From positions 1 to 58,095 of IMG/VR virus record IMGVR_UViG_3300037454_000132: DNA of 58,095 nucleotides. One strand, 5' to 3'. This document shows, piece after piece, positions 16,389 through 58,095 of this stretch. Each line of letters begins with the position of its first letter. Position 1 is the stretch's first letter. The notes below the pieces were generated by a model. The model was not told where the DNA came from. It saw only the letters and a list, made by a program, of their open reading frames with translations, and did not search any database. This stretch comes from a virus. Both the position numbers and the translations under genes were made by a program.

Positions 16389-17066
16389 ATGGGCGGCAGA
16401 GGTTCAAGCAGCGGCGGCGGATCAAGCCGCTCATTCCATACGATCCATCAAGCAAATGACTTTTTCGGCGTAGGCCGCGCGGACGGTATGTTTCCTGACT
16501 GGGAACGCGCCGTCCCGGACGACGAAAAGCAGTCCGCTATCCTGTACACGAAGCAAGCCTATATTCCGATGAACAAGCTCTTGCGGGAGGGCGAGGACGG
16601 CTATAAGAAATGGCTTGAGACGCATTCCGACAGCTATTTCCACGGTGACGCGGCTTTGATCCGTGAACACGCGGCCCGGATTGAAAGGGCTATGGACAAA
16701 TTCGACCTGAAAGAAAGCATCACCGTCTGGCGCGGCGGCAGCAGCCGTCTTGTGGGCGGCGCAACGACTGTGGAGGAATTGAAATCCTTGGTAGGCTCCA
16801 TCGTGCATGACAACGGCGTTATGAGTACCGCCGTCACCCGTGGCGGAATGTGGGACAAGAGCGGCGGAAAGAACATCGGCTATGAAATCGAAGTCCCGAA
16901 AGGCCGGGGACGCGGCGTGTTCATCGACCCCGTTTCCGCGCATCACGGCGAACAGGAGTTCATGGTACGTCCCGGAACGAAATTCAAGATCACCGGCGCG
17001 TACACGGACACCCACGGCGACGTGATTTGCAAGCTCAAGGCAATCTACCCGAAGAAACGCAAGTGA
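16389..17066 (+). CDS. ADP-ribosyltransferase (C3/Vip2-like R-S-E exotoxin fold)
   Basis: YTKQAYIPMNKLLREG, VWRG (Arg), MSTAV (STS-like), GEQEFMV (ExE). Confidence 0.8.
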   Translation: MGGRGSSSGGGSSRSFHTIHQANDFFGVGRADGMFPDWERAVPDDEKQSAILYTKQAYIPMNKLLREGEDGYKKWLETHSDSYFHGDAALIREHAARIERAMDKFDLKESITVWRGGSSRLVGGATTVEELKSLVGSIVHDNGVMSTAVTRGGMWDKSGGKNIGYEIEVPKGRGRGVFIDPVSAHHGEQEFMVRPGTKFKITGAYTDTHGDVICKLKAIYPKKRK

Positions 17067-17081
17067 TAGGAGGCAAGCACA

Positions 17082-17243
17082 ATGGCAGAGAAGAAGAACA
17101 TCCGCAAAGACCGCTTTACCGCGCAGGAGAGCGATTTTGTCTTTGACAAGCTCGTTGTCAACGGCAAAGAGGTAAAGCAGGGGCAGAAGCCCCCGAAAAA
17201 GCCCACCGCCCCGAAAAAGACCGGGAACGGCGGCAAAAAGTAA
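17082..17243 (+). CDS. Lys-rich microprotein (53 aa)
   Basis: TAGGAGG lies 8 nt before the ATG. C-terminal tail: KPPKKPTAPKKTGNGGKK. Below the ORF-track size cutoff. Confidence 0.5.
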   Translation: MAEKKNIRKDRFTAQESDFVFDKLVVNGKEVKQGQKPPKKPTAPKKTGNGGKK

Positions 17244-17258
17244 GGGAGGCCCTACGCT

Positions 17259-17888
17259 ATGGGCGGACGCGGCTCTATCTCAAAATTCAATAACGGGAAC
17301 AGCGGCAACACGCCCCGCCCACAGACCCTTGACGACTACTTAGGGCAGAAAGGCGATCCGAAAAGCCTTGATACCGCTATGACGACGGCAAATCCCCACT
17401 GGCTGGAATCCGCGCAGAAAAAGGACGGGCTGTATACTCACAACTGTCAACGCTGTATCTGGGCGGTAGAGCTTATGCGGCGCGGCTATGACGTGGAAGC
17501 CCTGCCCCGGACAGCGGATAACACCTATGCCCTGCTTGACCCGGACAAACCGCACAGCTTTGTCAACGTGGGCGATCCCCCGTTGCAGTTCAGCGCGGCA
17601 ATCGGCAACATCTGGTACAAGGCCAAAGCAACCGACGTGAAGAACGAAATCCTGAGACACCCGGAGGGATCACGCGGCGCGCTGGTTATGCACGGCCTGA
17701 AAAAAGGCCATGTGTGCAACTGGGAGATCGTCAAGGGCAAGGTGGTTATCTATGACGGGCAGGTAGGCCAAAAGCATACCTTGACCGACCTGATGAAAAA
17801 GGGCTTTGTGTCGTTCAAGGTGGCCCGTATGGATAACGTCGGCATCACCGACCTTGCGAAAGACTTTGTGAAAAGGAGGCAGTCATAA
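17259..17888 (+). CDS. Papain-fold (Tox-PL1/glutamine-deamidase-like) effector domain protein
   Basis: YTHNCQRCIWAVEL (Cys), KKGHVCNWEIV (His), VIYDGQ (Asp). N-terminus is MGGRGS. GGGAGG lies upstream. Confidence 0.55.
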   Translation: MGGRGSISKFNNGNSGNTPRPQTLDDYLGQKGDPKSLDTAMTTANPHWLESAQKKDGLYTHNCQRCIWAVELMRRGYDVEALPRTADNTYALLDPDKPHSFVNVGDPPLQFSAAIGNIWYKAKATDVKNEILRHPEGSRGALVMHGLKKGHVCNWEIVKGKVVIYDGQVGQKHTLTDLMKKGFVSFKVARMDNVGITDLAKDFVKRRQS

Positions 17889-34786: not shown

Positions 34787-37700
34787 ATGCAAAGCGTACC
34801 CGCCAACTGGGGCAGCATTTTTTCGGCCTCTCACAAAACAGAGTATCGCTTTACGGTAAACGGCGTGAACTATGAGGGCGACGACCTGAAAGACACGCCG
34901 GTTATCGTCAAGCCCCTGCTGGATAAACCCGCAATCGGGCGGTGCTGTACCGGGCAAGCGAAATTCAAAATCTACCCGAAAGGCACGATCCCGAAAGCGG
35001 CAACGGTTGACGCCTATTGCCGGTTGCGTTCTGCAACCGGCAATACCGTTACCAACTGGATTCCGCAGGGCAAATTTTACATTTCCAACCGCAAGGGAAA
35101 AGACCTGCTGGAAATCACCTGCCTTGACCGCATGATTAAGGCCGGGGTTACGTACCGCGACAAGTGCAATTTCAATTCGTGGCCGCAGCCTATGACCTCT
35201 GTGGTCAGCGATATTTGCCGGATCATGGGCGTCTCTCTGGACGCCCGGACGGTAATCAAAACCGGCGCGGGTTACACCGTTGACTACCCGAATGACGACG
35301 TTCTTATCTCTGAAATTCTGGGGATGATCGGCGCAGCTCACGGCGGCAACTGGATCATTACGGAGGCCGGAAAGCTCCGGCTGGTAGTGCTGGCTTCCCC
35401 CTCCGGCGACGCCGTACAGATTCTTGGAAAGGCTCACACGGGCTTTGTGGAGCGCGGCAAGACACAGACGATCAGCCGCGTCATTCTGGTAGACGACGCC
35501 GATAACGAGTTTACGGCTGGCGACGATTCCGGCCTGACGATCAGCGCGAAGTGCAACTATGCTACACAGGCGATAGCGTCAGCCCTTTGCAGCGCGGGAG
35601 GCATCCCGATTGACAACGGCTGTCTGACGATCCCGGACGCGGCTTTTTCAAACGGCATGATTTCCGTGGGCGCTGGCACCGTGGCGAACGGCAAAATTGA
35701 CCTGCAAACCGCCTCTGTGCTGTACGGTGTGATCTTTGAGCCGTACACGCTCTCCGGGGCGTATCTCAATCCGGCTGTTGAACTGGGCGACACCATGTCC
35801 GTCACAGACCGGGCGGGGAACGTCCATCGGGTAGTTGTGTTCTCCGTCAACATGAGCTGTACGGTTTCCTGTACGTGTTCTCTGTCCGCCCTGATTGACG
35901 GGGAAACGGAGGACGAATACCCGTACATCACCATGCAGGACTTGACCCTGAAACGGGCAGTACGGACGGATCAGACCTATTTCGGCAACCGGATCAACCG
36001 CTCTGAGGGTTTTGTAAGTGAACTGCTTGTCAATGACGTAGTGACCGCGCGCATGACCGCGAATGCGTCAAAGTTTTCGATGCAGTCCAAAGAGGGTAAT
36101 AGCTGGATTGACCGCATTTACTTTGACAACCTGACGGGAAAGTACGTTATCACCGGCGACGTGACTGTACAGGGCCTTGCGACGTTCAAAAGTGAGCTGG
36201 CCGTAAGCGGCTCCACGGTCATTAACGGCGGCAATATCACAACCGGGCAGATCAAGAGCAACAACGGCAGCGGCTTCACGATTGACCTGACCAACGGCAC
36301 AATCAGCGTCGGCAACAAAGACCTGAATACCGCGCTGAACGCCATTGATAACGAAATTGCTATCAGCGCAACGGCGCAGATGTTCACGAAAGCGGCTGAG
36401 GCGTCGTCCTATTCTCCGGCAAGTATCACGCTCACGGCGGTTTCCACGAACACCCTTGCGTCCTATCAGTGGTACAAAAACAATACGGCCATGAGCGGTA
36501 AGACCGCTCGGACACTGACCATTACGCCCAGTGACATAAGCGGCACGTCCGCGACGTTCAAGGTGGTAGGCACGGATTCTGGCGGACAGACCTACACGGA
36601 CGTTATGACGATTGCAAAGCTGGCGGACGGTGCAGACGGCGACCCCGGCGCAAAAGGTGACAAGGGGGATAAAGGCGATAAGGGCGACAAGGGAGATTCC
36701 GGCGTCGGTATCAGCTCCGTTGTGGAATACTACGCCATCAATAACAGCTCGTCCACGGCTCCGGCTGACAGCGCCTTTTCGACTACGGTACAGTCCCCGA
36801 CAAACGCAAACCGCTACCTGTGGAACTATGAACTTCTCACCTATTCTGACGGCTCCACCACAAAGACGCCGAAGCACGTTGCGGCGGTTTACGGTCAGAA
36901 AGGCGATACGGGCGACCCCGGCAGTCCGGGCGACCCCGGCAAGGGCATTGTGTCCATCACGGAATACTATGCTGTTAATAACTCCACGACGGCCCCGGTT
37001 GACAGCGCCTTTTCGACCTCGGTACAGACGCCGACAGCTTCAAACAAATACCTGTGGAACTATGAGCTGATTTCCTATACGGACGGCACGACGGCGAAAA
37101 CCGACAAGCGGATCATAGGAACATACGGCGACAAGGGCGATACGGGCGATCCCGGCAGTCCGGGCGTCGGCATTTCCTCGATCACTGAATACTACGCAAT
37201 CAACAACTCCACAACCGCCCCTGCGGACAGCGCCTTTTCGACTACCGTAAAGACGCCGACGACTTCAAACCGCTATCTGTGGAACTATGAGCTTGTCACG
37301 TACTCCAACGGAACGACGACAAAGCTGAGTAAGCACATTGCGGCAGTCTACGGTCAGACCGGTACGAAAGGCGACACGGGTAGTCAAGGTGATCCGGGCG
37401 TCGGCATTGCGTCCATCGTCGAATACTACGCTGTCAACAATTCCACAACGGCCCCCGACGACAACACCTTTTCCACCGTCGTTCTTTCGCCTACGTCGTC
37501 GAATAAGTACCTGTGGAACTATGAGCTGATTACCTATACCGACAATACGACGCACAAGACCGACAAGCGGATCATTGGCACCTACGGCGAGAAAGGCAGC
37601 AAGGGCAATAAAGGTGATAAGGGCGACGCTGGCGAGGACAGCTATACGGCGATTCTCAGCAATGAGTACATTGAGATTCCCGTAAACGTAGAAAGAAAAC

Positions 37701-39553
37701 CCCTGACCGCAAAAACCTATACCTGCGTCGTGTCCGTGTATAAGGGCATTACGGCTATGACGGCCACGCTCGACACCCCCGCAGCCGGTCAATTCAAGGT
37801 TGCTACGGGTACGGCTCCTACAGGCGTTACCGTCGCACAGTCCACGGCTGGAACGATCACCCTGACCGTTGCGACGAATAAAGCTATCATCGACGCCTCT
37901 GAGCTGGCCTTGACGATCACGGTTTACGGCGGGATTACGGTCAACGCGAAAATCTCCATCCACGCGAACATGAACGATGTGACGGTCACGCAGCAGTCCA
38001 GCATCGAACAGAACGCGACCAACATCACCCTGAAAGTCAGCAAGAATAGCGTTATCAGTGAGATTAACCAGAGCGCCGAACAGATCACCATTTCCGCCGC
38101 AAAGATCAATCTCTCCGGGCTGATTACCGCCATCAACGCTGACGGTCAGACCTCGACCATCGACGGCAGCAAAATCACTACGGGAACGGTCACAGCTACA
38201 CAGATTGCAGCTTCGACTATTACCGGCTCAAAGATCGCCTCCAACACCATTACGGCGTCCAACATCAAGGCAAGTACGATCACCGGCGCAAAAATCGCCT
38301 CTGAAACCATTACGGCGACCAACATAGCTGCCGGTACGATCACGGCAACGCAAATCGCCTCCGGTACGATCACCGCAACGCAGATCGCGGCCTCTACCAT
38401 TACCGGGGCAAAAATCGCGTCACAAACCATCGAGGCCGAGAACATCAAGTCCGGCACGATCACCGCCACCCAAATTGCGGCAAGCACCATCACCGGTGCG
38501 AAAATTGCGTCACAAACCATCGAGGCCGGGAACATCAAGTCCGGCACGATAACAGCAACACAGATCGCGTCCGGGACGATTACGGCAACTCAAATCGCCT
38601 CCGGGACGATTACCGCAACGCAGATCGCGGCATCGACCATCACCGGCGCGAAAATTGCGGCGAACACCATTGAGGCCGGAAACATCAAGGCAAGCACCAT
38701 TACCGGCGCAAAAATCGCATCGAACACCATTGAGGCCGGGAACATCAAGGCCGGAGCTATTACGGCGGACAAGATCGCATCTGGCGCTATCACCGCGAAC
38801 ATGATTACCTCTGGCACAATGTCAGCGGATCGCATTTCGGGCGGCACGATTGACGCAAACAACGTCACGATCACAAACCTTGACGTTTCCAACGCTCACA
38901 TTCAGACGATTTACGCCTATTCTTCGTCCTACTATGTCGCTCTGAAAACCTCTGGTACTACAACGCTGTACGTAGGTAGTGACGGGGCGTGGGCGGGTAT
39001 GTCGTATGTGTATGTATACGCGACGACCTCTTTTGAGGTTGGGAAATACGGAGCGTCGGATTGGTCGTACCGTTTGTGTTTTGATACCGTAAACCGTGAA
39101 CTCAAGCCAAACGGAACGAGCGTTTATGCGTGGGCGCTTGGAACAAGCGTTCGTCCATTCAAAGCAGGTTATTTCACGGAACTCTACGTGAATGGGACGG
39201 CAGTTACCGGAGGTACACCTACAATCTCTGTGCTGACTGGGAGCGGTACATATAACACGCTCACGTTGAACAGCTCAAGGCAGCTCGTACCCGGCTATAG
39301 CGGGACAAGCAGCACCTATGGTATTTCACTGGGAACCAGCAGCTACCCGTTTTATGCTCTGTACACGCACATTGCCAGTCTTGGTACGACAAGCACTTTG
39401 TCAAAGATCAGTTTCTTTGGCGCGACACTTTACGCAAAACAGACGGTCAATAAGATTTCATCCCCATCGTCCGCGACAGCGGCCACGATTGCGACAAAAG
39501 TAAATGACCTGTTGACCGCCCTGAAAAACTACGGTCTTATCGCAAGCAGCTAA
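34787..39553 (+). CDS. Tail-associated/tail fibre protein (1588 aa), modular
   Basis: Tal-like N-terminus, collagen-like GDKGDKGDKG tracts, four ~75-80-aa repeats, a long xITAxxIAxG decapeptide array, and a C-terminal tip ending KVNDLLTALKNYGLIASS. Confidence 0.85.
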   Translation: MQSVPANWGSIFSASHKTEYRFTVNGVNYEGDDLKDTPVIVKPLLDKPAIGRCCTGQAKFKIYPKGTIPKAATVDAYCRLRSATGNTVTNWIPQGKFYISNRKGKDLLEITCLDRMIKAGVTYRDKCNFNSWPQPMTSVVSDICRIMGVSLDARTVIKTGAGYTVDYPNDDVLISEILGMIGAAHGGNWIITEAGKLRLVVLASPSGDAVQILGKAHTGFVERGKTQTISRVILVDDADNEFTAGDDSGLTISAKCNYATQAIASALCSAGGIPIDNGCLTIPDAAFSNGMISVGAGTVANGKIDLQTASVLYGVIFEPYTLSGAYLNPAVELGDTMSVTDRAGNVHRVVVFSVNMSCTVSCTCSLSALIDGETEDEYPYITMQDLTLKRAVRTDQTYFGNRINRSEGFVSELLVNDVVTARMTANASKFSMQSKEGNSWIDRIYFDNLTGKYVITGDVTVQGLATFKSELAVSGSTVINGGNITTGQIKSNNGSGFTIDLTNGTISVGNKDLNTALNAIDNEIAISATAQMFTKAAEASSYSPASITLTAVSTNTLASYQWYKNNTAMSGKTARTLTITPSDISGTSATFKVVGTDSGGQTYTDVMTIAKLADGADGDPGAKGDKGDKGDKGDKGDSGVGISSVVEYYAINNSSSTAPADSAFSTTVQSPTNANRYLWNYELLTYSDGSTTKTPKHVAAVYGQKGDTGDPGSPGDPGKGIVSITEYYAVNNSTTAPVDSAFSTSVQTPTASNKYLWNYELISYTDGTTAKTDKRIIGTYGDKGDTGDPGSPGVGISSITEYYAINNSTTAPADSAFSTTVKTPTTSNRYLWNYELVTYSNGTTTKLSKHIAAVYGQTGTKGDTGSQGDPGVGIASIVEYYAVNNSTTAPDDNTFSTVVLSPTSSNKYLWNYELITYTDNTTHKTDKRIIGTYGEKGSKGNKGDKGDAGEDSYTAILSNEYIEIPVNVERKPLTAKTYTCVVSVYKGITAMTATLDTPAAGQFKVATGTAPTGVTVAQSTAGTITLTVATNKAIIDASELALTITVYGGITVNAKISIHANMNDVTVTQQSSIEQNATNITLKVSKNSVISEINQSAEQITISAAKINLSGLITAINADGQTSTIDGSKITTGTVTATQIAASTITGSKIASNTITASNIKASTITGAKIASETITATNIAAGTITATQIASGTITATQIAASTITGAKIASQTIEAENIKSGTITATQIAASTITGAKIASQTIEAGNIKSGTITATQIASGTITATQIASGTITATQIAASTITGAKIAANTIEAGNIKASTITGAKIASNTIEAGNIKAGAITADKIASGAITANMITSGTMSADRISGGTIDANNVTITNLDVSNAHIQTIYAYSSSYYVALKTSGTTTLYVGSDGAWAGMSYVYVYATTSFEVGKYGASDWSYRLCFDTVNRELKPNGTSVYAWALGTSVRPFKAGYFTELYVNGTAVTGGTPTISVLTGSGTYNTLTLNSSRQLVPGYSGTSSTYGISLGTSSYPFYALYTHIASLGTTSTLSKISFFGATLYAKQTVNKISSPSSATAATIATKVNDLLTALKNYGLIASS
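36636..37640 (+). repeat. Four tandem 224-237-bp coding repeats separated by collagen-like G-X-Y tracts (inside the fibre gene)
   Basis: Units start near 36701, 36938, 37162 and 37397. Each encodes G(V/K)GI.S..EYYA.NNS.TAP.D..FST.V..PT..N.YLWNYEL..Y..G...K. Confidence 0.85.
38170..38880 (+). repeat. Decapeptide (30-bp) repeat array inside the fibre gene
   Basis: Motifs such as ITATQIASGT, ITGAKIASQT and IEAGNIKSGT are iterated more than 20 times. Near-identical ~90-bp DNA blocks occur around 38380-38640. Confidence 0.85.
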
Positions 39554-40745: not shown

Positions 40746-41843
40746 ATGTCTATGAATCCCTTTGTTGACCGGTTTTCGGTCAACGGCGGCGCAAGCAACG
40801 CCGTTATCGGCGCAAGCGGCGATAGGTACTACGAGGGCGTAGACCTGACGCTGAAATTCGCAACAGAAATTGCCGCCTCTCCCTACAGCGGCAACCCGTG
40901 GGCGTGGATCAAGGCCCGTATTCAGGCTGCGGATTTCACCGGCATCCACGTGAACGACTACATCCCGTTCGTGACCACGGACAACAAGACCCTGAAAGCC
41001 TGTGTGGGCGGCATCAACACCTACAAGGGCTACGGCGACACGGCGGTAGGCAATCACATTGATTTCATCTGCCGTGAGCTGTGGCCTACCAGAAAGCCCG
41101 TCAACCCCGTCAACTACAACAACGGCCTGATCCCCGTCGAAACCCTGACCGGCGACGGTACGACCACTACCTTTGTTCTGGCAAAGGAAATGGACGGTAT
41201 CGCCTCCGTCACGCAGGGCGGCGAGGGCTTGACTGGCTACACCTACGACGCCTCCACGTTCACGCTGACCTTTGCGGAGGCTCCCGCCGCTGGCACGATC
41301 ACCGTCACCGGCACCGGCACGGAACATCCGTGGCTGGCCTCTGACCTCTATCACTGGCTGAACAGCCTTGCCGGTCAGGTGCCGAACGGTACGGGCCTCA
41401 ATCCCGCCGTGAAGCACGTGGATTACACGCAGGGCGGCGTGTACTACTACCTCCCGGCCAACCTGAAAAACGTGATCGTGGAAAAGAGGGCGTACCTGCC
41501 GAAGCGGTACAGCGCGTCCGGTCTGCTTTCCGACGACAACGCCGGAGCGTGGGCCGATATTGGCAAGCTGTGGCTCCCGTCCGAATACGAGGTCTACGGT
41601 GGCCCCGTCTGGGGCGGCAAGAACGGCTATGCGCTGGCCGGTAACTGCGTGCAGTACCCGATTTTCGCCCACAACATGAACCGCGTCAAGAACAGGAGCG
41701 GTAGCCGGGAGCGGTGGTGGGTACTCTCTGTCTATTCAGGCAATACCACGGATTGGTGCCATGTCAACAACAGCGGCGGTGCCGGCAACACCGGCGCGTC
41801 CTACACCAGCCGTGCCGCGCCCGTCTGCTTCCGTATCTCATAA
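40746..41843 (+). CDS. DGR target protein 1 (C-type-lectin-like/DUF1566-like variable C-terminus)
   Basis: Its 3' end carries VR1. The C-terminus is WWVLSVYSGNTTDWCHVNNSGGAGNTGASYTSRAAPVCFRIS. Confidence 0.85.
   Translation: MSMNPFVDRFSVNGGASNAVIGASGDRYYEGVDLTLKFATEIAASPYSGNPWAWIKARIQAADFTGIHVNDYIPFVTTDNKTLKACVGGINTYKGYGDTAVGNHIDFICRELWPTRKPVNPVNYNNGLIPVETLTGDGTTTTFVLAKEMDGIASVTQGGEGLTGYTYDASTFTLTFAEAPAAGTITVTGTGTEHPWLASDLYHWLNSLAGQVPNGTGLNPAVKHVDYTQGGVYYYLPANLKNVIVEKRAYLPKRYSASGLLSDDNAGAWADIGKLWLPSEYEVYGGPVWGGKNGYALAGNCVQYPIFAHNMNRVKNRSGSRERWWVLSVYSGNTTDWCHVNNSGGAGNTGASYTSRAAPVCFRIS
41715..41835 (+). repeat. DGR variable region VR1
   Basis: 121 nt aligned to TR 42414-42534 with 15 mismatches. 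Fourteen are at TR adenines and one is at TR T42511. Confidence 0.9.
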
Positions 41844-41858
41844 TCTGTTTTGGCAATC

Positions 41859-41877
41859 CGCGCCCCTTGTGGGCGCG
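41859..41877 (+). promoter_or_regulatory. GC hairpin downstream of VR1 (DGR target-recognition hairpin candidate)
   Basis: CGCGCCC-cttgt-GGGCGCG, about 24 nt after the VR end. The same sequence follows VR2. Confidence 0.7.
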
Positions 41878-41894
41878 CACAGGAGAAATGGATT

Positions 41895-42362
41895 ATGAGT
41901 AACGTGCTGAAACGATTTCAGGGGATCAGCGAAATGGAGTTTTACCATACCGCTGACGACCTGCGCACGGAGCTTTCCAGTTTGTTGTACAGGGATAAGG
42001 TTGTCCCGAAAAAGTATCGGTACAACGTCACGTATGCGGCGGTAGACGCCGTAAACCGCATGATGCGGCTGATGCACCGGGCCAACCGAAAATCCCTGTA
42101 CGACCCGGAGGAAGTAAAAGAACGCCGTGACCTACAGCAAGAGTGTATCGAATGCCTTGACGAGATTTGCGAGATCATCCAGTACGCGATTCGCAATGTG
42201 TGGTGGCAAAAGCTACACGCGGTAAACAAGGAAACGGGAGAGCCGACACAGGAACGGTTGCTTTTGGAAAAGCACCTGACCGATATAGGCGATCTGATTG
42301 ACCGCGAAGATCGTTTACTCAAAGGCTGGAAACGCTCTACAAGACTTCTCAAAAACAAATAA
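41895..42362 (+). CDS. avd: DGR accessory variability determinant (Avd-like)
   Basis: 155-aa helical, basic protein located between target and TR. AGGAG lies before ATG41895. Confidence 0.75.
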   Translation: MSNVLKRFQGISEMEFYHTADDLRTELSSLLYRDKVVPKKYRYNVTYAAVDAVNRMMRLMHRANRKSLYDPEEVKERRDLQQECIECLDEICEIIQYAIRNVWWQKLHAVNKETGEPTQERLLLEKHLTDIGDLIDREDRLLKGWKRSTRLLKNK

Positions 42363-42413
42363 GCAAATCGGTTATTTTCTGCTGCATAAAATCCTGAGAG
42401 TAGCCGGGATAAT

Positions 42414-42534
42414 TGGTGGGTACTCTCTGTCTATTCAGGCAATACCACGAATTGGTGCAATGTCAACAACAACGGCAATGCCAACAACAACAACGCGTCC
42501 AACACCAACATTGCCGCGCCCGTCTGATTCCGTA
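42414..42534 (+). repeat. DGR template repeat (TR)
   Basis: Non-coding copy of the VRs, rich in AAC triplets (caacaacaacggcaatgccaacaacaacaac). No downstream GC hairpin. Confidence 0.9.
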
Positions 42535-42758
42535 AAACACCGCTGATTCCGAAACAGCATATCCCCTATGGCCCGTATAGAGTAAGCGCCCCGCGCGCTG
42601 AAATTAGTGCCTACCCCAAAGCAAATGTTTACGGAAGGAGAAAATAACCGTCCCGAATCGAAAAGGGTAAATACGCACCGTGACGCGGCTGGCCGGACGC
42701 TTCTTGCATGGCCGGGGATGGCGACTGAGCTGACGGAATCCAGCAAGTACCCGGTTAC

Positions 42759-44087
42759 ATGACCATTGCCGCTATGGAGATCACAACGCGCCCCTACAAT
42801 AACACTCTGCGCGGTGCTTTCCCCCAGTTGAAAGAGGCAAACGAATTGAATAGTCAGGAACGACACGAAGCGCGCTACCAGCGCCGGAAAGCAGCACGGG
42901 CCGCGAAACGTCGGGAGAAGATCGGAAAGTATGACGACTTTGACCGGCTATCCTCCGTCCCCGCGATCCTCCATGCGAACTGGGAAACGCGGCAGGGCGT
43001 GATGTTCAAGGCAAACGTAGCGCGATACAACATGAATTATTACAAGAACGCTACACGGCAGTCAAAGGATTTGCGCGAGGGAAAAGACGTGCGGCGGTCA
43101 TTCTACGTTTTCGATATTCGGGAGCGTGGGAAGCTGCGGCACATTCACAGTCTGCATTACTCCGAACGTGTGATCCGGCGCTCCGCCTGTACCAACGCCT
43201 TTGTTCCTGTTCTCTCAAACGGTCTGATTTACGACAACGGGGCAAGCCTGAAAGGAAAAGGCGTGTCTTTCGCTGCGAATCGGTGTGAGGCACACTTGCA
43301 TAAGTATTTCCGGGAAACCGGGAGCAATGAGGGTTATATCCTGATAATCGACTTCAAAGGCTACTTTGACCATATTCTGCATGAGCCTTTGAAAGAACTC
43401 ATTGACCGGGCGTTTGAGGACAAGCGGATTGTCAACTTGAGCTACAGCTTTATCGACGCGACCAACCGGGACAAGCCGCCCGAACAACACGGGCAGGGCT
43501 TGTACATCGGGCCGGAGGACAGTCAGATTTACGCCGTCGCCTACCCAAATCGGATTGACCACAAGATCAAAGACGAGCTGCGGCAAAAGTATTACAACCG
43601 CTACATGGACGATTCCTACATCATTCACCGCGATAAGGACGTTCTACAGGCTATTCTTGACGTTCTGCTGAAAGAGTACGCGAAATACGGTATTATCCCT
43701 AACCCGAAGAAAACGCAGATCGTGAAGCTCTCAAAGGGCTTTACGTACCTTAAAACCCGCTATTACCTGACCGAAACCGGACGGGTAATCAAAAAGGCGG
43801 ATCATAGCTGCATCGTGCGCGAAAGGCGGAAGCTGAAAAGGCTACACGGGCTGTACGTGGCAGGTGAGGTTACACTTGACCAAATCGTACAGTCCTATAT
43901 GTCGTGGCGCGGCTCAATCCTGAAACGGGATGCCTACCGCTCTGTGCAAAGCATGGACGCCCTGTTCTTTGGACTTTACGGCGTCAAGCCGTGGAGAAAT
44001 CTTAAAAAGAAACGAGGTAAGTACAATGGACGAAACCCGCGATCAGATCATCGGGGAGATTACCGCCCTGAAATCCCTGCTGCGTGA
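42759..44087 (+). CDS. DGR reverse transcriptase
   Basis: LYIGPEDSQIYA (DGR-type IGxxxSQ) and NRYMDDSYI (YxDD). Confidence 0.9.
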   Translation: MTIAAMEITTRPYNNTLRGAFPQLKEANELNSQERHEARYQRRKAARAAKRREKIGKYDDFDRLSSVPAILHANWETRQGVMFKANVARYNMNYYKNATRQSKDLREGKDVRRSFYVFDIRERGKLRHIHSLHYSERVIRRSACTNAFVPVLSNGLIYDNGASLKGKGVSFAANRCEAHLHKYFRETGSNEGYILIIDFKGYFDHILHEPLKELIDRAFEDKRIVNLSYSFIDATNRDKPPEQHGQGLYIGPEDSQIYAVAYPNRIDHKIKDELRQKYYNRYMDDSYIIHRDKDVLQAILDVLLKEYAKYGIIPNPKKTQIVKLSKGFTYLKTRYYLTETGRVIKKADHSCIVRERRKLKRLHGLYVAGEVTLDQIVQSYMSWRGSILKRDAYRSVQSMDALFFGLYGVKPWRNLKKKRGKYNGRNPRSDHRGDYRPEIPAA

Positions 44088-46924: not shown

Positions 46925-46937
46925 TTGCCTATAAGCC

Positions 46938-47210
46938 GGTAAACAGATTGGTCTACAAAGTGGGCTACAGTTTCGGAAAGTTTGTAGACTTTGTAGACCG
47001 GCGCGGTCTACAAATAAACAGATTTTTTGCAACTGTAGACCGATTTGTAGACCGTTCAAAGCCTTGTGTATCAAGGGTTTTCAGCTATTCGTAAACAGAT
47101 AAACAGATATTTCTAATAGACTTATGAAAACAGAGGAATTAGGCGGTAAAACCCCGCCTGACACGCCTATACGCATATGTCATATACGCGCGCGTGTATT
47201 TGTAGACCGA
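46938..47210. repeat. Composite iteron-rich intergenic element, copy C
   Basis: GTCTACA/TGTAGAC at 46951, 46983, 46992, 47006, 47034, 47046 and 47201. AAACAGATAAACAGAT. Hairpins. TATACGCGCGCGTG at 47183-47196. Confidence 0.9.
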
Positions 47211-47269
47211 GGGCAAAAACGCGGTGTGTATGCGTCTTTTGGCTGGTCGAAAAATTTTCCAAAAAATTT

Positions 47270-47334
47270 AGTCAAAAGTTATTGACAAGTCTATGAACGT
47301 GTGCTATAATTCAGACAGTCAAAAAACTTTGACT
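47270..47334 (+). promoter_or_regulatory. Early promoter with two flanking operators
   Basis: AGTCAA-N6-TTGACA (47270-47287; TTGACA is the -35), 17 nt, TATAAT at 47305-47310, then AGTCAA-N6-TTGACT at 47317-47334. Confidence 0.75.
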
Positions 47335-47376
47335 AAAACGACAACCGAAACGCGACACGCGAAAGGAGATAACACG

Positions 47377-47571: not shown

Positions 47572-47829
47572 ATGATTAAGTTCTACAAGGTCAAAGATAC
47601 GGAGATCAGAAAGGCCGCGAAAGTGGACGAGGATGGAAAGGTTGTGGCGGTGGTCGCAATCATCGGACGGATCGGTGAGCTGGTTGAACGCGAGATCATC
47701 AGCGACGTAGAGAATTTCAACCGTGTCCGGGATCGCTGGTTGGTTATGCCGAAAGAGGCAATCGACACGGAACGCTGCGACGTAACCTATGAGACGCTTG
47801 CAGAGGCGAAAGCGAGTATCGCAGAGTGA
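47572..47829 (+). CDS. Hypothetical protein (85 aa)
   Basis: AAGGAGG lies upstream. A GC hairpin follows at 47830-47845. Confidence 0.6.
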   Translation: MIKFYKVKDTEIRKAAKVDEDGKVVAVVAIIGRIGELVEREIISDVENFNRVRDRWLVMPKEAIDTERCDVTYETLAEAKASIAE

Positions 47830-47897
47830 CGCCCCTCCGGGGGCGGTAATGCGGGAGGCCGGTCACAACCCCGGCCACAGAAAGAGAGGCAAGAGCA

Positions 47898-49004: not shown

Positions 49005-49038
49005 TTTTGACCGGTCAATCGTGGCCGGTCAAAAATTT
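49005..49038. terminator. Bidirectional-looking terminator hairpin
   Basis: TTTTGACCGG-10 nt-CCGGTCAAAA followed by ATTT. Confidence 0.55.
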
Positions 49039-49050
49039 CTTACAAAATAT

Positions 49051-49115
49051 AGTCAAAAGGTGTTGACAAGTCTATGTTCGTTTGCTATACTGTGCATAGT
49101 CAAAAATCATTGACT
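49051..49115 (+). promoter_or_regulatory. Early promoter with two flanking operators (paralog of 47270-47334)
   Basis: AGTCAA-N6-TTGACA (49051-49068), 17 nt, TATACT at 49086-49091, then AGTCAA-N6-TTGACT at 49098-49115. Confidence 0.75.
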
Positions 49116-49155
49116 GAACACGATAAGCGACAAGCGAAAAACGGAGGTACGCGAA

Positions 49156-51918: not shown

Positions 51919-52098
51919 ATGGAAAACGTATTCGGGGGCGCGGCTGTGCTGTGCATCTATCTTGGGCCGCTGCTGTTGGCACTGGCCGTAGGCGGGTTTA
52001 TTTCGGACGTACTTTTGCCGCGCTGCCCGTTCCTGCTCCGTCTGCTGGAACGGCTGACCGGCGTAGATTTAGGAGGTAATGACTATGAGGACGATTGA
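51919..52098 (+). CDS. Small membrane protein (59 aa)
   Basis: GGAGG lies 9 nt before ATG51919 (MENVFGGAAVLCIYLGPLLLALAVGGFI). Preferred over the Arg-rich ORF 51879..52079. Confidence 0.45.
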   Translation: MENVFGGAAVLCIYLGPLLLALAVGGFISDVLLPRCPFLLRLLERLTGVDLGGNDYEDD

Positions 52099-53134
52099 TA
52101 GGTTTCTGGGCTGTCTGGTGGGTGGCGCGCTGGGGGACGCTCTGGGCTACCCCGTCGAGTTTATGAGCATGAATGACATATGCCGCATCTACGGCCACCG
52201 GGGGATCAGGGAGCCGCTTGTAAACCGGCTGGACAAGACCGCGCATATCTCCGACGACACGCAAATGACCTTGTTCACGGCGAATGGGCTTTTGCTGGCG
52301 CACAACGATGGGCTTGATCTTACTGACGCCCTATGGATCGCGTATCAGCGGTGGTATTACACTCAGACGATGCGGTGTGAGAACATCGAGTATACGATCC
52401 GCCGCGCCGGTGATCCACTTCCGTACATTCTGGATCAACACGCACTTCACGCTTGCCGCGCTCCCGGTACTACCTGTCTGACGGAGCTTGGCAACGGACA
52501 CCGGGGCGCTCCCGGCAAGAATCTGAATGACCGTAAGGGCTGTGGCGGCGTCATGCGTGTTGCGCCCTGTGGTCTGTTCTTTGCGGAGGAACCGGACGTT
52601 GCGTGTCTGGCAGCGGTCAAGGCCGCAGCTCTGACGCACGGCCACCCGACAGGCTACACGGCGGCGGGGGCGTTTGCGTACATGATCGCCCGGATTGTGA
52701 AAGACGGGATTTCCATTCGGGCGGCGGCGGAGGCGGCTATGCAGCTTGTCCCGGCTATCTCCGACAACACGGAAACGGCTGAGGCAATCGAAATGGCCCT
52801 GTTCTATGCGGAACAGGACACCTACCCGCAGAAAGCTATAAACGTGCTGGGCGAGGGCTGGACGGCTGAGGAAGCCCTTGCAATCGGCCTGTACTGCGCT
52901 CTGAGAGGTAAGACCACAAAGGAAGCCCTGATACTTGCCGTCAATCACAAGGGCGACAGCGACAGCACAGGCGCGATTTGCGGCAATATCGTAGGCGCGT
53001 ACTACGGCTATGACGCGCTTCCGGCTGACTGGATCAAGGCGCTTGAGCTTGAGGGTTTTATCCGCGTGACGGCCTTTGAGCTTTACAACAACAGCGACAG
53101 CAAAAGAAAGGAGTACAAGGATGCTGAAAAGTGA
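52085..53134 (+). CDS. ADP-ribosylglycohydrolase (ARH/DraG family)
   Basis: GGALGDALGYPVEF, HISDDTQMT, GCGGVMRVAP, HGHPTGY, GDSDSTGAICGNIVGAYYG. An alternative ATG is at 52079. Confidence 0.85.
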   Translation: MRTIDRFLGCLVGGALGDALGYPVEFMSMNDICRIYGHRGIREPLVNRLDKTAHISDDTQMTLFTANGLLLAHNDGLDLTDALWIAYQRWYYTQTMRCENIEYTIRRAGDPLPYILDQHALHACRAPGTTCLTELGNGHRGAPGKNLNDRKGCGGVMRVAPCGLFFAEEPDVACLAAVKAAALTHGHPTGYTAAGAFAYMIARIVKDGISIRAAAEAAMQLVPAISDNTETAEAIEMALFYAEQDTYPQKAINVLGEGWTAEEALAIGLYCALRGKTTKEALILAVNHKGDSDSTGAICGNIVGAYYGYDALPADWIKALELEGFIRVTAFELYNNSDSKRKEYKDAEK

Positions 53135-53738: not shown

Positions 53739-54527
53739 ATGTTCGACGCGATTAGAAAACCCACAGGCGAAGTGATACACGTTTATGCTGTGGAGGGCCA
53801 CAAATTTCTGATAACCGATGGCGGAATGTTCCTTTGGGACGATAAGGTGAACTACGCTCCGGTCAGCGGACAGGCCCCGGAAGTCAAAGCTGCACCGAAG
53901 AAAGACAACGCCAAGAATACCGCAACACTGTTCAAGGCTCTTGAGCTGGACTTTTCACTTGCGGATTTGCTTTCGCAGATGTGTTCTGGGGAGCTGGAAA
54001 TGTTTGTCGGAGATTACTTCACGACCCGTCTGAAAAACGGCAAGGAGGTTGATTTTGTTTGCACCGACAAAGACGGGCAGTCCTACCGGTTTGAGAGCCG
54101 GGATTGTCTGGGCCGGTATGATCCCATGACGAAGATTGACCGCTTTTTCAATGCGGTCTGGGCGGAGCTTCCTGATCCTTTGACGGACAGGATTATGGAG
54201 ATCATCAGGCAGTACAAGTCCGCTGACGGTGAGCTGATGGAACGTAAGTGCAAGCTGTTCCTCCCGTCCGCCTCTGAAATCTTCCCGGCTGACGAGTGCT
54301 ACGGGGATCAGGGTGTGTATGAACAGCTTGAGTGGTATAAGGACGTACACAACCGCATCCGGGCTTACGAGAAAGGCGGGGCCGCTGACTGGTACTGGAC
54401 GCAATCTCCCCGCTCAGGCAATACCACGCATTGGTGCACTGTCTACAACTACGGCGGTGCCGACTACGACCTCGCGTCCTCCACCACCATTGCCGCGCCC
54501 GTCTGCTTCCGTATTCCCCGAATCTAA
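53739..54527 (+). CDS. DGR target protein 2 (remote), C-type-lectin-like variable C-terminus
   Basis: The 3' end carries VR2. The C-terminus WYWTQSPRSGNTTHWCTVYNYGGADYDLASSTTIAAPVCFRI parallels target 1. Confidence 0.85.
   Translation: MFDAIRKPTGEVIHVYAVEGHKFLITDGGMFLWDDKVNYAPVSGQAPEVKAAPKKDNAKNTATLFKALELDFSLADLLSQMCSGELEMFVGDYFTTRLKNGKEVDFVCTDKDGQSYRFESRDCLGRYDPMTKIDRFFNAVWAELPDPLTDRIMEIIRQYKSADGELMERKCKLFLPSASEIFPADECYGDQGVYEQLEWYKDVHNRIRAYEKGGAADWYWTQSPRSGNTTHWCTVYNYGGADYDLASSTTIAAPVCFRIPRI
54404..54503 (+). repeat. DGR variable region VR2
   Basis: 100 nt aligned to TR 42435-42534 with 15 mismatches, all at TR adenines. Confidence 0.9.
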
Positions 54528-54541
54528 AATCCGCGCCCCTT
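54521..54541 (+). promoter_or_regulatory. GC hairpin downstream of VR2
   Basis: CCGCGCCC-cttgt-GGGCGCGG. The core sequence is the same as at 41859-41877. Confidence 0.7.
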
Positions 54542-54580
54542 GTGGGCGCGGCTACACAGCGAGAAAGGAGAATGCGAAAG

Positions 54581-55398: not shown

Positions 55399-55429
55399 TG
55401 CCCCGGAGGATTTACCTCCGAGGCATTTT
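55395..55429. terminator. Bidirectional terminator hairpin between convergent genes
   Basis: AAAATGCC-CCGGAGG-attta-CCTCCG-AGGCATTTT. It overlaps the last integrase codons. Confidence 0.65.
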
Positions 55430-57019
55430 CAGTATGAGCGCAAATACGTTCCCGTAAAAAACGAGTTCGTATGCGCGCGTTATGGTGGAGCATTGCGCGC
55501 GGCATCCGAACACCCCGGCCTTGCGTAACCGATCAAAGTCTGTGAATCGTACTTGTGCTTTGTCCCCGCCGAAATTGAAATTGATGGTCATTTCATCGTC
55601 GGTGATGTAGATGGAGTTCACAAACACGTCTACGAGCCGTTTTTGCCATGCTCTGTCCTTAAAGTCAGCTTCCCGGAATTGCAGTAGGAAAAACTCAATA
55701 TGCTCCCGCGTCAGATGAAAGCCGCCGTCGAGCTGCGTTTCAGCGATAGCCTTTGAAAGAGCTGTCCGCTGGGCGTCCAGCTCCGATAGGCGGCTTTTTG
55801 TTATATCCGTAAAGGGCAGACCGTTTTCTACGGCGCGGATCAGGTTGTTCATTGCCGTTTCCGTTTCGTGTAGCTGTGCTTCCAGCCCCTTGACCTTTTC
55901 CCGCCGCTGATCCTCCGCGAGATAGAACGCCCACACGCTGTCCGTTATAAACTGGATCGCTTCATCGTCCATGACCAGACCTTGCACCTGATCCATAACG
56001 TAGTCCTCAATCCAGTCCTGCCGGATCGCTTTTCGGGCGCAGCTTTTCCCGCGCTTATGGTTTGCGCAAAGGTAGTAGTTGTACTTTGCCCCGGTCTTGC
56101 TTGTACCGCTCTCTCCGACCATCTGAGCGCCGCAGGAGCCGCAGAACAGCTTGTCGGTAAGAAGATAGTCCGCCTTGCTCCAACGGGCCGCAGGAGCGCG
56201 TTGATTGACCTGTAGGAGCTTTTGCACTTTGTAGAACGTGTCTTTATCCACGATTGCCGGTACAAGCCCCTCCGTTCGGATTTCCCCGCCCTTGAAGCTG
56301 TAAATCCCGATGTACTTTTCATTCGACAAGACGGTACGCAGACTGTTCTTTGTGAACGGTTTGCCTTGGCTTGTGTGTAGTCCCTCCGCGTTGAGCTGAT
56401 TGATTATTTCGGTGATCGTCCACCCCTCCGCGTACATGGAATAGATGCGGCTGACGAGCGGGGCGCTGTCAGGGTCTATCACAAATTTGTGTTCCGGGGA
56501 GAGTTTGTAACCGAGCGGAACGCGCCCACCCGTGAATTGTCCTTTTTTGGCTGCTTCCCGGTTGCCGCGCTTGATGTTTTGGGAAAGCTGCAAGGAGTAG
56601 TATTCGGCCATACCCTCAAGGACACTCTCAAGGATCACACCCTCCGGGCCGTCCGGCATCGTCTCAGCGACATACTCTACCCGGACGCCGTGTTTTCGGC
56701 ACCGGTATTTGTTGAACGTGATTTCCTCCCGGTTGCGCCCGAAGCGGTCAACTTTCCAGACGATAATGACCTGAAATTGCTTTTTAGCACAGTCCGAAAG
56801 CATCTGCTGAAAATCGTCCCGGTTGTCGTTCCTCCCGGTCATAGCCCTGTCAATGTATTCGTGTATGATCGTGTAGCCTCTGGCCTCTGCATACTTTCGC
56901 GCTGCTGCAAGCTGCCCCTCTATAGACTGTTCGCCCTGACTGTGCGAGGAATACCGGGCATAAACGACGGCGTTCTTTCCGCCTTTGTCGAGGCCGTTAT
57001 AGTTTATCTGGACGCTCAT
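55412..57019 (-). CDS. Large serine recombinase (integrase)
   Basis: N-terminal resolvase motif VVYARYSSHSQ. Recombinase domain. Zinc ribbon CGSCGAQM...YYLCANHKRGKSC. GAGGGGG lies before ATG57019. Confidence 0.9.
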   Translation of the reverse strand: MSVQINYNGLDKGGKNAVVYARYSSHSQGEQSIEGQLAAARKYAEARGYTIIHEYIDRAMTGRNDNRDDFQQMLSDCAKKQFQVIIVWKVDRFGRNREEITFNKYRCRKHGVRVEYVAETMPDGPEGVILESVLEGMAEYYSLQLSQNIKRGNREAAKKGQFTGGRVPLGYKLSPEHKFVIDPDSAPLVSRIYSMYAEGWTITEIINQLNAEGLHTSQGKPFTKNSLRTVLSNEKYIGIYSFKGGEIRTEGLVPAIVDKDTFYKVQKLLQVNQRAPAARWSKADYLLTDKLFCGSCGAQMVGESGTSKTGAKYNYYLCANHKRGKSCARKAIRQDWIEDYVMDQVQGLVMDDEAIQFITDSVWAFYLAEDQRREKVKGLEAQLHETETAMNNLIRAVENGLPFTDITKSRLSELDAQRTALSKAIAETQLDGGFHLTREHIEFFLLQFREADFKDRAWQKRLVDVFVNSIYITDDEMTINFNFGGDKAQVRFTDFDRLRKAGVFGCRAQCSTITRAYELVFYGNVFALILKMPRR

Positions 57020-57070
57020 TGTTCGCCCCCTCAAAGAATAGGTAGATCACTTTGCCGCGTCGGATCGCTC

Positions 57071-57541
57071 TCACGCCTGTTTTTTCCTATCGGCCTGTTC
57101 TGCGTATTTTTCCTGCGACAAAAGCCCTTGCGCGAAGCCCTCCAACTTGCCCTTGTCTGTGTCGTCCAGCCGGTTATAAAGGGAGAGTATCAGCGGTGTA
57201 GCGTTGCGCTCCCGCCGCACGTCGTTTTCAACTGCGCGCTGGAACGCGACGGCCTTTTTCACGTCCCCGTCAAAGGCGTCGAGCTGTGGCCCCGCGAGTT
57301 CGGCCAAAAGGTCAGGGTTTGTGTAATCGGTAGGATCGTCCGTGCGCCCCAAAAGGTAGTCCGTCGAGACGCCGTACACGTCTGCAATCGCAGCGAGATA
57401 TTCCCCTTTAGGCGCTCTGTCGTTCGCTTTCCATGAGGAAATAGTACCCCGGTTTGTACCGAGGGCTTGCGCGGCTTGCTCTGACACCGGCTTGTAGCCG
57501 CGCGCAAGACACAATTTTTCGTACCGGTCAAAAAAGGTCAT
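57071..57541 (-). CDS. XRE/CI-type repressor
   Basis: HTH region SEQAAQALGTNRGTISSWKANDRAPKGEYLAAIADVYGVSTDYLLG. Divergent from the Cro-like gene. The longer ORF to 57610 would overlap the promoter. Confidence 0.85.
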   Translation of the reverse strand: MTFFDRYEKLCLARGYKPVSEQAAQALGTNRGTISSWKANDRAPKGEYLAAIADVYGVSTDYLLGRTDDPTDYTNPDLLAELAGPQLDAFDGDVKKAVAFQRAVENDVRRERNATPLILSLYNRLDDTDKGKLEGFAQGLLSQEKYAEQADRKKQA

Positions 57542-57581
57542 CTTGTTTTGTCCTTTCTGCCAGTACGAAAATTTTTTCTGA

Positions 57582-57656
57582 AAAATAGTCAAAGTGTATT
57601 GACAAGTCAAAATTCATAGACTATAATTACTGCGTAGCAGTCAAGAAACGTGGACT
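57582..57656. promoter_or_regulatory. Genetic switch: rightward early promoter with operators, and a divergent repressor promoter
   Basis: AGTCAA-N6-TTGACA (57587-57604), 17 nt, TATAAT at 57622-57627, then AGTCAA-N6-TGGACT at 57639-57656. On the - strand, TTGACT-17 nt-TATTTT reads toward the repressor. Confidence 0.7.
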
Positions 57657-57795: not shown

Positions 57796-58020
57796 GTGCC
57801 GGAGAATTGGACTGCCGAGGTCGTAGGGCGTATGCACGTCGCCCGGATCACGCAAAGGGCGCTGGCTAAGGAATGCGGGTATTCCGAAGCATACGTTTCC
57901 GAAGTCCTGAACAGCAGACGTGACAAGGGCAGCGAACAGACGAAAGTGAACATCTACGCCGCTCTTGAGCGTCTTGAGGCCGCACATTCCGCGTCCGAGG
58001 ACGCGACGGTGCAGAGCTGA
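57796..58020 (+). CDS. Cro-like/XRE HTH protein
   Basis: ITQRALAKECGYSEAYVSEVLN. GGGAG lies 7 nt before GTG57796. The ORF track start at 57775 is TTG. Confidence 0.65.
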   Translation: MPENWTAEVVGRMHVARITQRALAKECGYSEAYVSEVLNSRRDKGSEQTKVNIYAALERLEAAHSASEDATVQS

Positions 58021-58095
58021 TGGACGCAACGGGAAAACCGAAAATCGACTTTTCCCAGATGGGCGAAGCCGACAAGCGAAATCTCTGTACCACGT
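57969..58095. repeat. Terminal overlap, identical to 1-127
   Basis: Read directly. See the feature at 1-127. Confidence 0.95.

Follow-up and report, generated by a model that had tools for sequence, protein, structure and literature searches.

The window analyzed in this study is a 58,095-nt stretch of viral DNA, IMG/VR virus record IMGVR_UViG_3300037454_000132 (positions 1 to 58,095). It carries a diversity-generating retroelement (DGR) with one template repeat (TR) and two variable regions (VRs). VR1 lies in a gene of the tail module (target 1), and VR2 forms the 3' end of a remote gene outside the virion module (target 2). VR2 is very probably a genuine distal DGR target of the functional type represented by orf43 of phage Shimadzu. 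It is considered a true homing site because its mismatches to the TR fall at adenines only, it has the full set of cis elements, the arrangement is conserved in 13 elements, hypervariation is restricted to the VR, and experiments on Shimadzu have been published. Actual VR2 retrohoming has been shown by others in the homologous Shimadzu gene. The two-target architecture of this protein family is also already published, and the window is a further uncultured instance of it. The features that carry this finding are as follows.

42400..42534 (+): TR; 42400-42534 pairs with VR1, and 42435-42534 with VR2
40746..41843 (+): target-1 gene, 365 aa, with a DUF6273 domain; it closes the tail module and contains VR1 (41701-41835)
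53739..54527 (+): target-2 gene, 262 aa, ATG start, GGAGG 8 nt upstream; Pfam DUF6273, E 1.6e-7
54414..54513 (+): VR2, homologous to TR 42435-42534 over 100 nt without gaps
54414-54491 (+): mutable tract of VR2
54492-54513 (+): GC-rich block GCCGCGCCCG of VR2 and a 3' end resembling the initiation of mutagenic homing (IMH) site, with a VR-specific C at 54506

The repeat family has three copies in the window, namely VR1, the TR, and a third copy that starts at 54379. TR positions 42435-42534 align with VR2 in an ungapped register of +11979. The initial annotation had placed VR2 about 12 kb downstream of the TR, in agreement with the measured distance of 11,979 nt. The 100-nt homology and the location of all mismatches at TR adenines, both described there, were also confirmed; the coordinates given for VR2 (54404-54503) were 10 nt too low. 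VR2 differs from the TR at 15 of 100 nt, and all 15 mismatches are at TR adenines. This TR segment contains 33 adenines, and the hypergeometric P of the pattern is 4e-9. For VR1, 16 of the 19 mismatches in 135 nt are at adenines; the other three lie at 42410 and 42413, at the 5' edge, and at 42511. Read in the frame of the VR, the TR has 31 of 33 adenines at codon positions 1 and 2, and 13 of its codons are AAY. The TR is noncoding, with an in-frame stop codon in addition to the AAY codons. Upstream of 54414, DNA similarity to the TR ends exactly at the TR border, and the two targets are similar there only at the protein level.

Relatives were collected for comparison. For eleven elements, the TR and a target-2 homolog were retrieved together on a single sequence; these are the window, Shimadzu, two contigs from ENA, and seven IMG/VR contigs. 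Two contigs of bacterial metagenome-assembled genomes were added, for a total of 13 independent elements. In all 13, the 3' end of the target-2 homolog is an adenine-specific VR, with 8 of 8 to 19 of 20 mismatches at TR adenines. The distance between the distal VR and the TR ranges from 7.6 to 13.9 kb, and target-2 protein identity goes down to 35%.

VR2 carries each cis element of VR1, i.e., the GC-rich 3' block, a VR-specific C at a TR adenine, and a GC hairpin. The two hairpins are listed below.

54531..54551 (+): hairpin after VR2, CCGCGCCC-CTTGT-GGGCGCGG, 8-bp stem, 17 nt past VR2
41859..41877 (+): hairpin after VR1, CGCGCCC-CTTGT-GGGCGCG, with the same core as at VR2

In both VRs, GCCGCGCCCG is followed by TCTGCTTCC; the TR has TCTGATTCC instead. 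In the frame of the VRs, the TR shows TGA (42525-42527) where the VRs show TGC, a Cys codon (41826-41828 in VR1 and 54504-54506 in VR2). The C/A difference sits 3' of the GC-rich block and is fixed in 11 of 11 tabulated elements, in which all VRs end in ...GTCTGCTTCC and all TRs in ...GTCTGATTCC. By analogy with the IMH and IMH* sequences reported for phage BPP-1, the C/A mark likely defines the recipients and the 3' limit of transfer. A template copied past the TGA would be lethal, which points to the same 3' limit; with this limit, the stop codon of the TR would be kept out of the VRs.

The GC hairpin is found 15-38 nt past every VR1 and VR2 of the 11 elements and past no TR. Its loop is of the CTTG(T/C) type across the elements, except in Shimadzu (CTCGT and CTATGT). 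Five complementary stem versions occur among the phages, namely CCGCGCCC/GGGCGCGG, CGCGCCG/CGGCGCG, CCGCCAG/CTGGCGG, CCGGCTAC/GTAGCCGG, and CCGCCGC/GCGGCGG. The stems thus vary between phages yet keep their complementarity (covariation), and the two hairpins within a phage are usually alike. In the window, the VR2 hairpin begins 3 nt past the TAA stop codon (54525-54527) and has a minimum free energy of -12.1 kcal/mol as DNA (z = -2.9). It is the target-recognition hairpin of the DGR. The same core after VR2 as after VR1 had been noticed before, correctly; the coordinates assigned to it (54521-54541) were again 10 nt too low, and an end at 54541 splits the hairpin in half. A role of this hairpin as an intrinsic terminator on the + strand was considered and rejected because no T-run follows on that strand; the scan lists it for the minus strand only, followed by ATTTTAGATT.

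Sequence variation among close relatives is concentrated in VR2. Target 2 of the window is 83% identical to that of the closest relative, L003, and the two differ at 25 positions in VR2, 18 of which are TR adenines. Outside VR2, the differences number approximately 4 over the preceding 195 nt and zero over the 38 nt that follow. In three clusters at 90% identity, residue types per column amount to 3.7-3.8 within the 27-residue VR (1.8 for a 3-member cluster), compared with 1.05-1.17 outside it. The VR columns that do not vary (W, C, V, G, A, and S) correspond to TR codons without adenine, and near-identical relatives differ almost solely at codons that are AAY in the TR. An invariant VR2 among related genomes had been named as the sign of a dead relic. 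This refutation fails, as no part of the gene varies more than VR2 does.

Besides VR2, the disordered linker of target 2 (53889-53990, aa ~50-85) is a hotspot of divergence from L003, with approximately 40 differences in 100 nt between nearly identical flanks. This second hotspot is unrelated to the TR and suggests recombination or relaxed constraint.

The prophages that bear this family are hosted by Oscillospiraceae, Acutalibacteraceae, and Ruminococcaceae for the closest members, then by Lachnospiraceae and Anaerovoracaceae. Searches of 50,697 phage records at the DNA level, with the target-2 region and the DGR cassette as queries, gave no match, and Shimadzu was found by the protein-level search alone. 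In 80 loci fetched via the endolysin, many DGRs and no target-2 homolog were found.

The DGR of the window comprises the following components in addition to the TR and the VRs.

41895..42362 (+): Avd-like accessory gene, 155 aa, between VR1 and the TR (the canonical position)
42568..42837 (+): RT-2 RNA motif (Rfam RF03077), full length, 116.5 bits vs. a gathering score of 40
42759..44087 (+): DGR reverse transcriptase (RT), 442 aa; Pfam RVT_1 1.5e-14, PHROG 1423 9e-63

The RT has IGPEDSQ at aa 250 and YMDD at aa 282, which are of the DGR type ([ILV]GxxxSQ and YxDD). The RT-2 RNA occupies the interval from the TR to the RT gene and extends over the RT start codon. The same motif lies 3' of the TR in Shimadzu (L002, 19715-19938), L097, L099, and L116, and it is likely part of the DGR RNA, as a spacer or priming part. 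The Avd-like protein has no Pfam or PHROG match, and its BLASTP match to the annotated Avd of Shimadzu is weak (E 2e-5, 20% identity).

In the mechanism that we propose, the RT would copy the TR transcript into cDNA with random substitutions opposite adenines, and the mutated cDNA would replace two recipient sites, VR1 and VR2. The recipients would be the 3' end of the tail-module gene, 0.7 kb upstream, and the 3' end of the gene at 53739-54527, 11,979 nt downstream. Four marks are found at each recipient, namely a TR-homologous tract, a GC-rich block, an IMH-like end with C against the A of the TR, and, after another 17-23 nt, a GC hairpin. Owing to the C/A difference, transfer would run in one direction only and the in-frame TGA of the TR would stay out of the VRs. 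The proposal made in the initial annotation, that one retroelement diversifies two different proteins, is supported.

The model system for these elements is phage BPP-1. Its DGR reportedly consists of TR, VR, avd, and RT and works by adenine-specific mutagenesis; the VR is said to end in a GC-rich IMH unlike the IMH* of the TR, and a downstream hairpin or cruciform is said to be needed for homing. The window has a matching TR/VR pair, the adenine-specific pattern, the IMH-like difference, and the hairpin. Distinct from the window, BPP-1 has a single target, the trimeric tail-fibre tip Mtd with a beta-prism and a beta-sandwich, and target 2 has no such domains.

The closest experimental counterpart is the Roseburia phage Shimadzu, for which two VRs are described; its VR2 belongs to orf43, a gene "of unknown function" (Cornuault et al., bioRxiv 10.1101/575076; LR596903.1). 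DGR-type changes at the VR2 of orf43 were seen in 2% of virion reads in vitro and in 47% of virome reads in mice, and allele selection was weaker at VR2 than at VR1 (bioRxiv 10.1101/575076). Orf43 is homologous to target 2 (tblastn E 1e-29, 37.7% identity, aa 74-259, 71% of the query), and its RFESRDCLG, FLPSxSEIF, and DWYWT motifs align with those of target 2. As in the window, the Shimadzu VR is at the 3' end of the gene (13.9 kb from the TR), has 15 of 15 mismatches at adenines, bears the GTCTG[C/A]TTCC mark, and is followed by a hairpin; an RT-2 RNA follows the TR, orf43 is outside the virion module, and a serine integrase is present. The two phages also differ. Shimadzu is a myovirus, orf43 lacks the N-terminal beta-barrel and linker, and the two Shimadzu hairpins differ from each other, whereas those of the window are the same. 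In Shimadzu, the integrase and repressor precede orf43, which has DNA methyltransferases on one side and Erf/SSB on the other, whereas the gene of the window is located after lysis and before the integrase.

Other two-VR phages have been described. Two VRs each are known from the Faecalibacterium phages Lelie, CP11, and Lagaffe_CP and the genus Toutatisvirus. The "large" and "small" targets of Lelie, CP11, and Toutatisvirus all have DUF6273 with a C-terminal VR, and the distal target of Toutatisvirus is part of the core genome, at a distance of 17.5 kb from the TR (PMC11792537; bioRxiv 10.1101/2024.10.15.618418). They are similar to the window in the use of one TR for two VRs, in a distant second target of unknown function, and in hypervariation at both VRs across cognate genomes. 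However, no sequence match to target 2 was found for them in the phage collection at E 1e-5; hence, their second target belongs to a different subfamily. Distal second VRs close to counter-defence genes are also reported for induced human-gut prophages, with four two-VR species and DGRs mostly in Bacteroidota phages (Nature 2025, PMC12629997); the target-2 neighbourhoods described below are of the same kind. The metagenomic phages nd4 and nd12 have two C-lec/DUF6273 targets, tentaclin and tgt2 (PMC10743442). Their tgt2 is a single-domain DUF6273 protein with a 3'-end VR that encodes a surface beta-hairpin, and the model of the window protein also shows a hairpin. In contrast to the window, in which the second target is 12 kb off in an early-type operon, both targets of nd4 and nd12 are inside the cassette, and tgt2 is a proposed receptor-binding protein. 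Roux et al. described their own survey as blind to remote targets.

The reading frame of target 2 (53739..54527) was correct in the initial annotation, as was the absence of an obvious signal peptide; no signal-like or transmembrane segment was found, and the maximum 19-aa Kyte-Doolittle hydropathy is 0.89. The statement that the two targets have only a C-terminal scaffold in common has to be revised. They share the whole DUF6273 domain, beyond the last 35 residues, with approximately 35% identity over ~147 aa (target-2 residues 128-259), and both match Pfam DUF6273. AlphaFold2 models were made for the full length (predicted local distance difference test, pLDDT, 84) and for aa 71-262 alone (pLDDT 93.6). 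They predict an N-terminal beta-barrel (aa 1-41, pLDDT ~94), which is joined through a disordered linker (aa ~45-70) to the DUF6273 domain (aa ~73-262). VR2 encodes a modelled beta-hairpin at aa ~226-251, with strands at aa 231-235 and 241-245. The product is predicted to be soluble and to have two domains, of which DUF6273 may display the VR hairpin as a diversified ligand-binding surface.

Structure searches gave few leads. Foldseek with aa 71-262 against the PDB returned one significant match, 9qa6 (E 4.7e-4, TM 0.64), the N-terminal DUF6273 domain of an IgA peptidase from Thomasclavelia ramosa. The full-length model had no significant match in the PDB, probably due to its two domains and linker. 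The barrel has SH3/Sm-like Foldseek matches of marginal significance. In BFVD, the matches of target 2 are other uncharacterised DUF6273 phage proteins and nothing else. A sequence profile search of the PDB gave a spurious TnpA match alone (E 0.06), and PHROGs contain no family for either target nor for most of the neighbours. A search of the 45-aa N-terminal domain against 1.84 billion representatives yielded 8 weak matches, all to beta-repeat proteins (Cna_B, RCC1, CarboxypepD_reg, and S74 fibres); these comprise multiple short stretches and were judged to be compositional or beta-hairpin noise and uninformative. Within the target-2 family, the invariant residues cluster in RFESRDCLG, FLPSxSEIF, CYGD, and DWYWT.

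The genomic setting of target 2 bears on its function. An exact 127-nt direct terminal repeat (1-127 and 57969-58095), whose junction is crossed by a small early ORF, indicates that the window is completely assembled, as a closed circle of 57,968 bp. It is a temperate siphovirus-type genome, and its host is probably an Oscillospirales gut bacterium. The gene order is repressor (-) and integrase (-), early and replication genes, virion genes, target 1 with the DGR, lysis genes, and a + strand block at 47.3-55.4 kb. This block ends in target 2, which is convergent on the integrase, and the earlier placement of target 2 just before the integrase is accurate. The relevant features are listed below.

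55412..57034 (-): large serine integrase, directly downstream of target 2; Pfam Resolvase, Recombinase, and Zn_ribbon_recom, PHROG 95
57071-57541 (-): CI-type repressor; Pfam HTH_3 and Phage_CI_repr
57599-57627 (+): divergent early promoter beside the repressor, with the same TAGTCAAA motif
49050..49104 (+): near-consensus sigma-70 promoter region, TTGACA-17-TATACT at 49063-49091, with operator-like TAGTCAAA flanks; repeat family D5
52079..53134 (+): ADP-ribosylglycohydrolase gene, PF03747 E 2.9e-72, three genes upstream of target 2 in the same operon

Three near-perfect sigma-70 promoters occur in 46.8-58.1 kb (47282, 49063, and 57599), and they form one repeat family. The promoter cassette copies (47250-47337, 49031-49118, and 57568-57627) consist of TTGACA-17-TATAAT/TATACT with TAGTCAAA / TTTGACTA flanks. 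The window has 7 copies of TAGTCAAA vs. 1.1 expected, and 6 of the 7 are at the three promoters. This distribution suggests that one regulator may control three early transcription units. The 49063 promoter is likely the start of the target-2 operon, and the promoter and terminator scan found no strong + strand terminator between it and 55.3 kb.

Neighbourhoods were compared within four genes of target 2 at 17 non-redundant loci. The neighbours include genes for ADP-ribose processing (ADP-ribosylglycohydrolase, also present in L003 and L097, Macro, and NADAR), DNA modification or counter-restriction (Lar, DarA_C, DUF4942 and Dam methyltransferases, PAPS-reductase-like proteins, and ParB_N), and RNA repair, replication, or recombination (RtcB, DNA polymerase A, DUF2800/PD-(D/E)XK, Enc34 SSB, and Erf/SSB). 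No capsid or tail gene was found within this range at any of the loci. Two kinds of placement occur. The gene lies either between the lysis genes and the integrase, as in the window, or within the replication module and past the integrase and repressor, which is the arrangement of Shimadzu. These neighbourhoods, together with the early-type promoter and its operator-like motif, bear out the view of the initial annotation that the gene stands outside the virion module in an early or accessory block.

With this setting, the proposal that target 2 is an early product with a role inside the infected cell or as a free protein, not as a tail fibre, is evenly balanced in our judgement. The suggestion in the initial annotation that it may act inside the cell is plausible from the genomic context. 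About half of the weight goes to a non-virion role, and counter-defence makes up half of that portion or slightly more. A virion adhesin or receptor-binding protein receives a clearly smaller share than the non-virion roles as a whole, and the smallest share is left to other roles.

As a virion protein, target 2 would be a second receptor-binding or adhesion module that is docked to the tail or head by its N-terminal barrel and is encoded outside the late module by chance. Its diversification would then serve attachment to the host or the environment, as for Mtd of BPP-1. This possibility is doubtful. The DUF6273 scaffold is common to target 2 and the tail-module target 1, and receptor binding is favoured for single-domain DUF6273 tgt2 proteins (PMC10743442). 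The N-terminal modules of the target-2 family are also swapped (beta-barrel, DUF6378, helical or other, or none), as is often the case in adaptor domains. However, the gene is never beside virion genes at the 17 loci, and the target-2 operon has a promoter/operator-like motif in common with the early promoter. Target 2 has no Mtd-like beta-prism or beta-sandwich, no PDB sequence match indicating likeness to Mtd, no Foldseek match to Mtd or tail proteins, and no PHROG structural match. Furthermore, the VR2 alleles of Shimadzu are under weaker selection than those of VR1, with a different allele in every isolate.

Counter-defence is a comparably tentative explanation. Target 2 would then be an intracellular, diversifiable binder that is made at the start of infection and neutralises variable host immunity proteins or their products. 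The protein is apparently cytoplasmic, its operon has an early-type promoter, and ADP-ribosylglycohydrolase, Macro, NADAR, Lar, DarA_C, DNA methyltransferases, and RtcB are its recurrent neighbours. Distal VRs near counter-defence genes were also noted in the 2025 survey (PMC12629997). Against this, the argument is one of guilt by association, and ordinary replication genes (DNA polymerase A, SSB, Erf, and PD-(D/E)XK) are in the same block. No similarity to known anti-defence proteins was found, and the sole solved DUF6273 domain is from a secreted protease.

A very unlikely explanation is that VR2 is a dead relic, i.e., a former target or a duplicated C-terminal domain whose adenine-specific differences are historical. 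Some observations fit it. L006 (NCBI JAMQYI010211185.1, 2600-3000) has a natural deletion of avd, the TR, and RT residues 1-318, by which the first ~9 avd codons are fused to RT residue ~319, and its target genes persist, with both VRs and hairpins intact. Phage Lelie showed no read variation at either VR in culture (PMC11792537). In the window, however, the RT, TR, RT-2 RNA, and putative avd are intact. The IMH-like end and hairpin of VR2 are perfectly kept, and in each phage they have evolved in step with their VR1 counterparts. VR2 differs sharply between near-identical relatives. The absence of any non-adenine mismatch in 100 nt indicates that VR2 has not decayed since the last homing event. 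Chance similarity was considered and rejected. A further explanation, suggested by the paralogy of the targets over ~147 aa, is that simple paralogy or gene conversion links the DUF6273 genes and the TR without retrohoming; it is effectively refuted by DNA identity that ends exactly at the TR borders, by mismatches at TR adenines only (P = 4e-9), by a noncoding TR with an in-frame stop and AAY codons, and by the same pattern in 13 elements.

Several points weigh against the interpretation of VR2 as a genuine distal DGR target of the functional type. The present-day activity of the VR2 copy in the window is deduced from the features above. Since L006 keeps its targets without a DGR, ongoing diversification is not obligatory for retention of the gene. 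The Avd-like gene is assigned by its position and the weak Shimadzu match, and its product is thus a putative Avd. Early expression and common repressor control of the target-2 operon are predicted from promoter similarity. In addition, Foldseek against the PDB did not recover a C-type-lectin fold for DUF6273; the CD23 lectin matches have TM ~0.27, and C-type-lectin chains appeared at TM ~0.25 only.

The window by itself adds little, as two-target DGRs with a distal DUF6273 VR are published and rewriting of the Shimadzu homolog has been demonstrated. The family picture is more useful, as it reveals a conserved, dedicated second target in phages of Oscillospirales, Lachnospiraceae, and Anaerovoracaceae, always with the same IMH mark and covarying hairpin, always at a non-virion location, and often beside ADP-ribose or DNA-modification genes. 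It raises the concrete question of what a phage gains from hypermutating a soluble early-operon protein. One speculative answer, which we consider rather improbable, is that the family is a DGR-diversified intracellular binder for adaptive counter-immunity under a repressor-controlled early promoter, with the hairpin selected against variable host defence components. If target 2 is an intracellular binder, DGR biology would extend from attachment to the intracellular arms race; if it serves counter-defence, this would be a second major DGR role beyond host attachment.

Other elements were noticed in the window and its relatives. A full-length type-P5 twister ribozyme (RF02684, 62.9 bits vs. 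gathering 37.6, E 9e-11) is present at 47820-47874 (+), between two small ORFs of the first early-type operon, and a syntenic copy is found in L003 (3492-3546). In the same block, L098 has two type-II hammerhead matches instead (2765-2829 and 5380-5444; ~38 vs. gathering 37 bits). The intergenic region past the holin terminator (46930-47210) contains the short repeats TTTGTAGAC(C)/GGTCTACAAA approximately 7 times and TAAACAGAT 3 times, with a 36-nt imperfect inverted repeat at 46950-47053. Candidate roles for this repeat-rich region are those of an origin, a pac site, or a site related to attP. In the tail-fibre-like ORF 34787-39553 (1588 aa), a 30-nt periodic array at 38156-38875 encodes 10-residue repeats with weak Pfam Collagen and PKD matches. 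In L097, a related prophage on a 211-kb bacterial contig, a tmRNA gene (17022-17372, -) lies at the end of the prophage, with a 37-aa DUF4368 fragment at 17583-17696, consistent with serine-integrase integration at or near ssrA.

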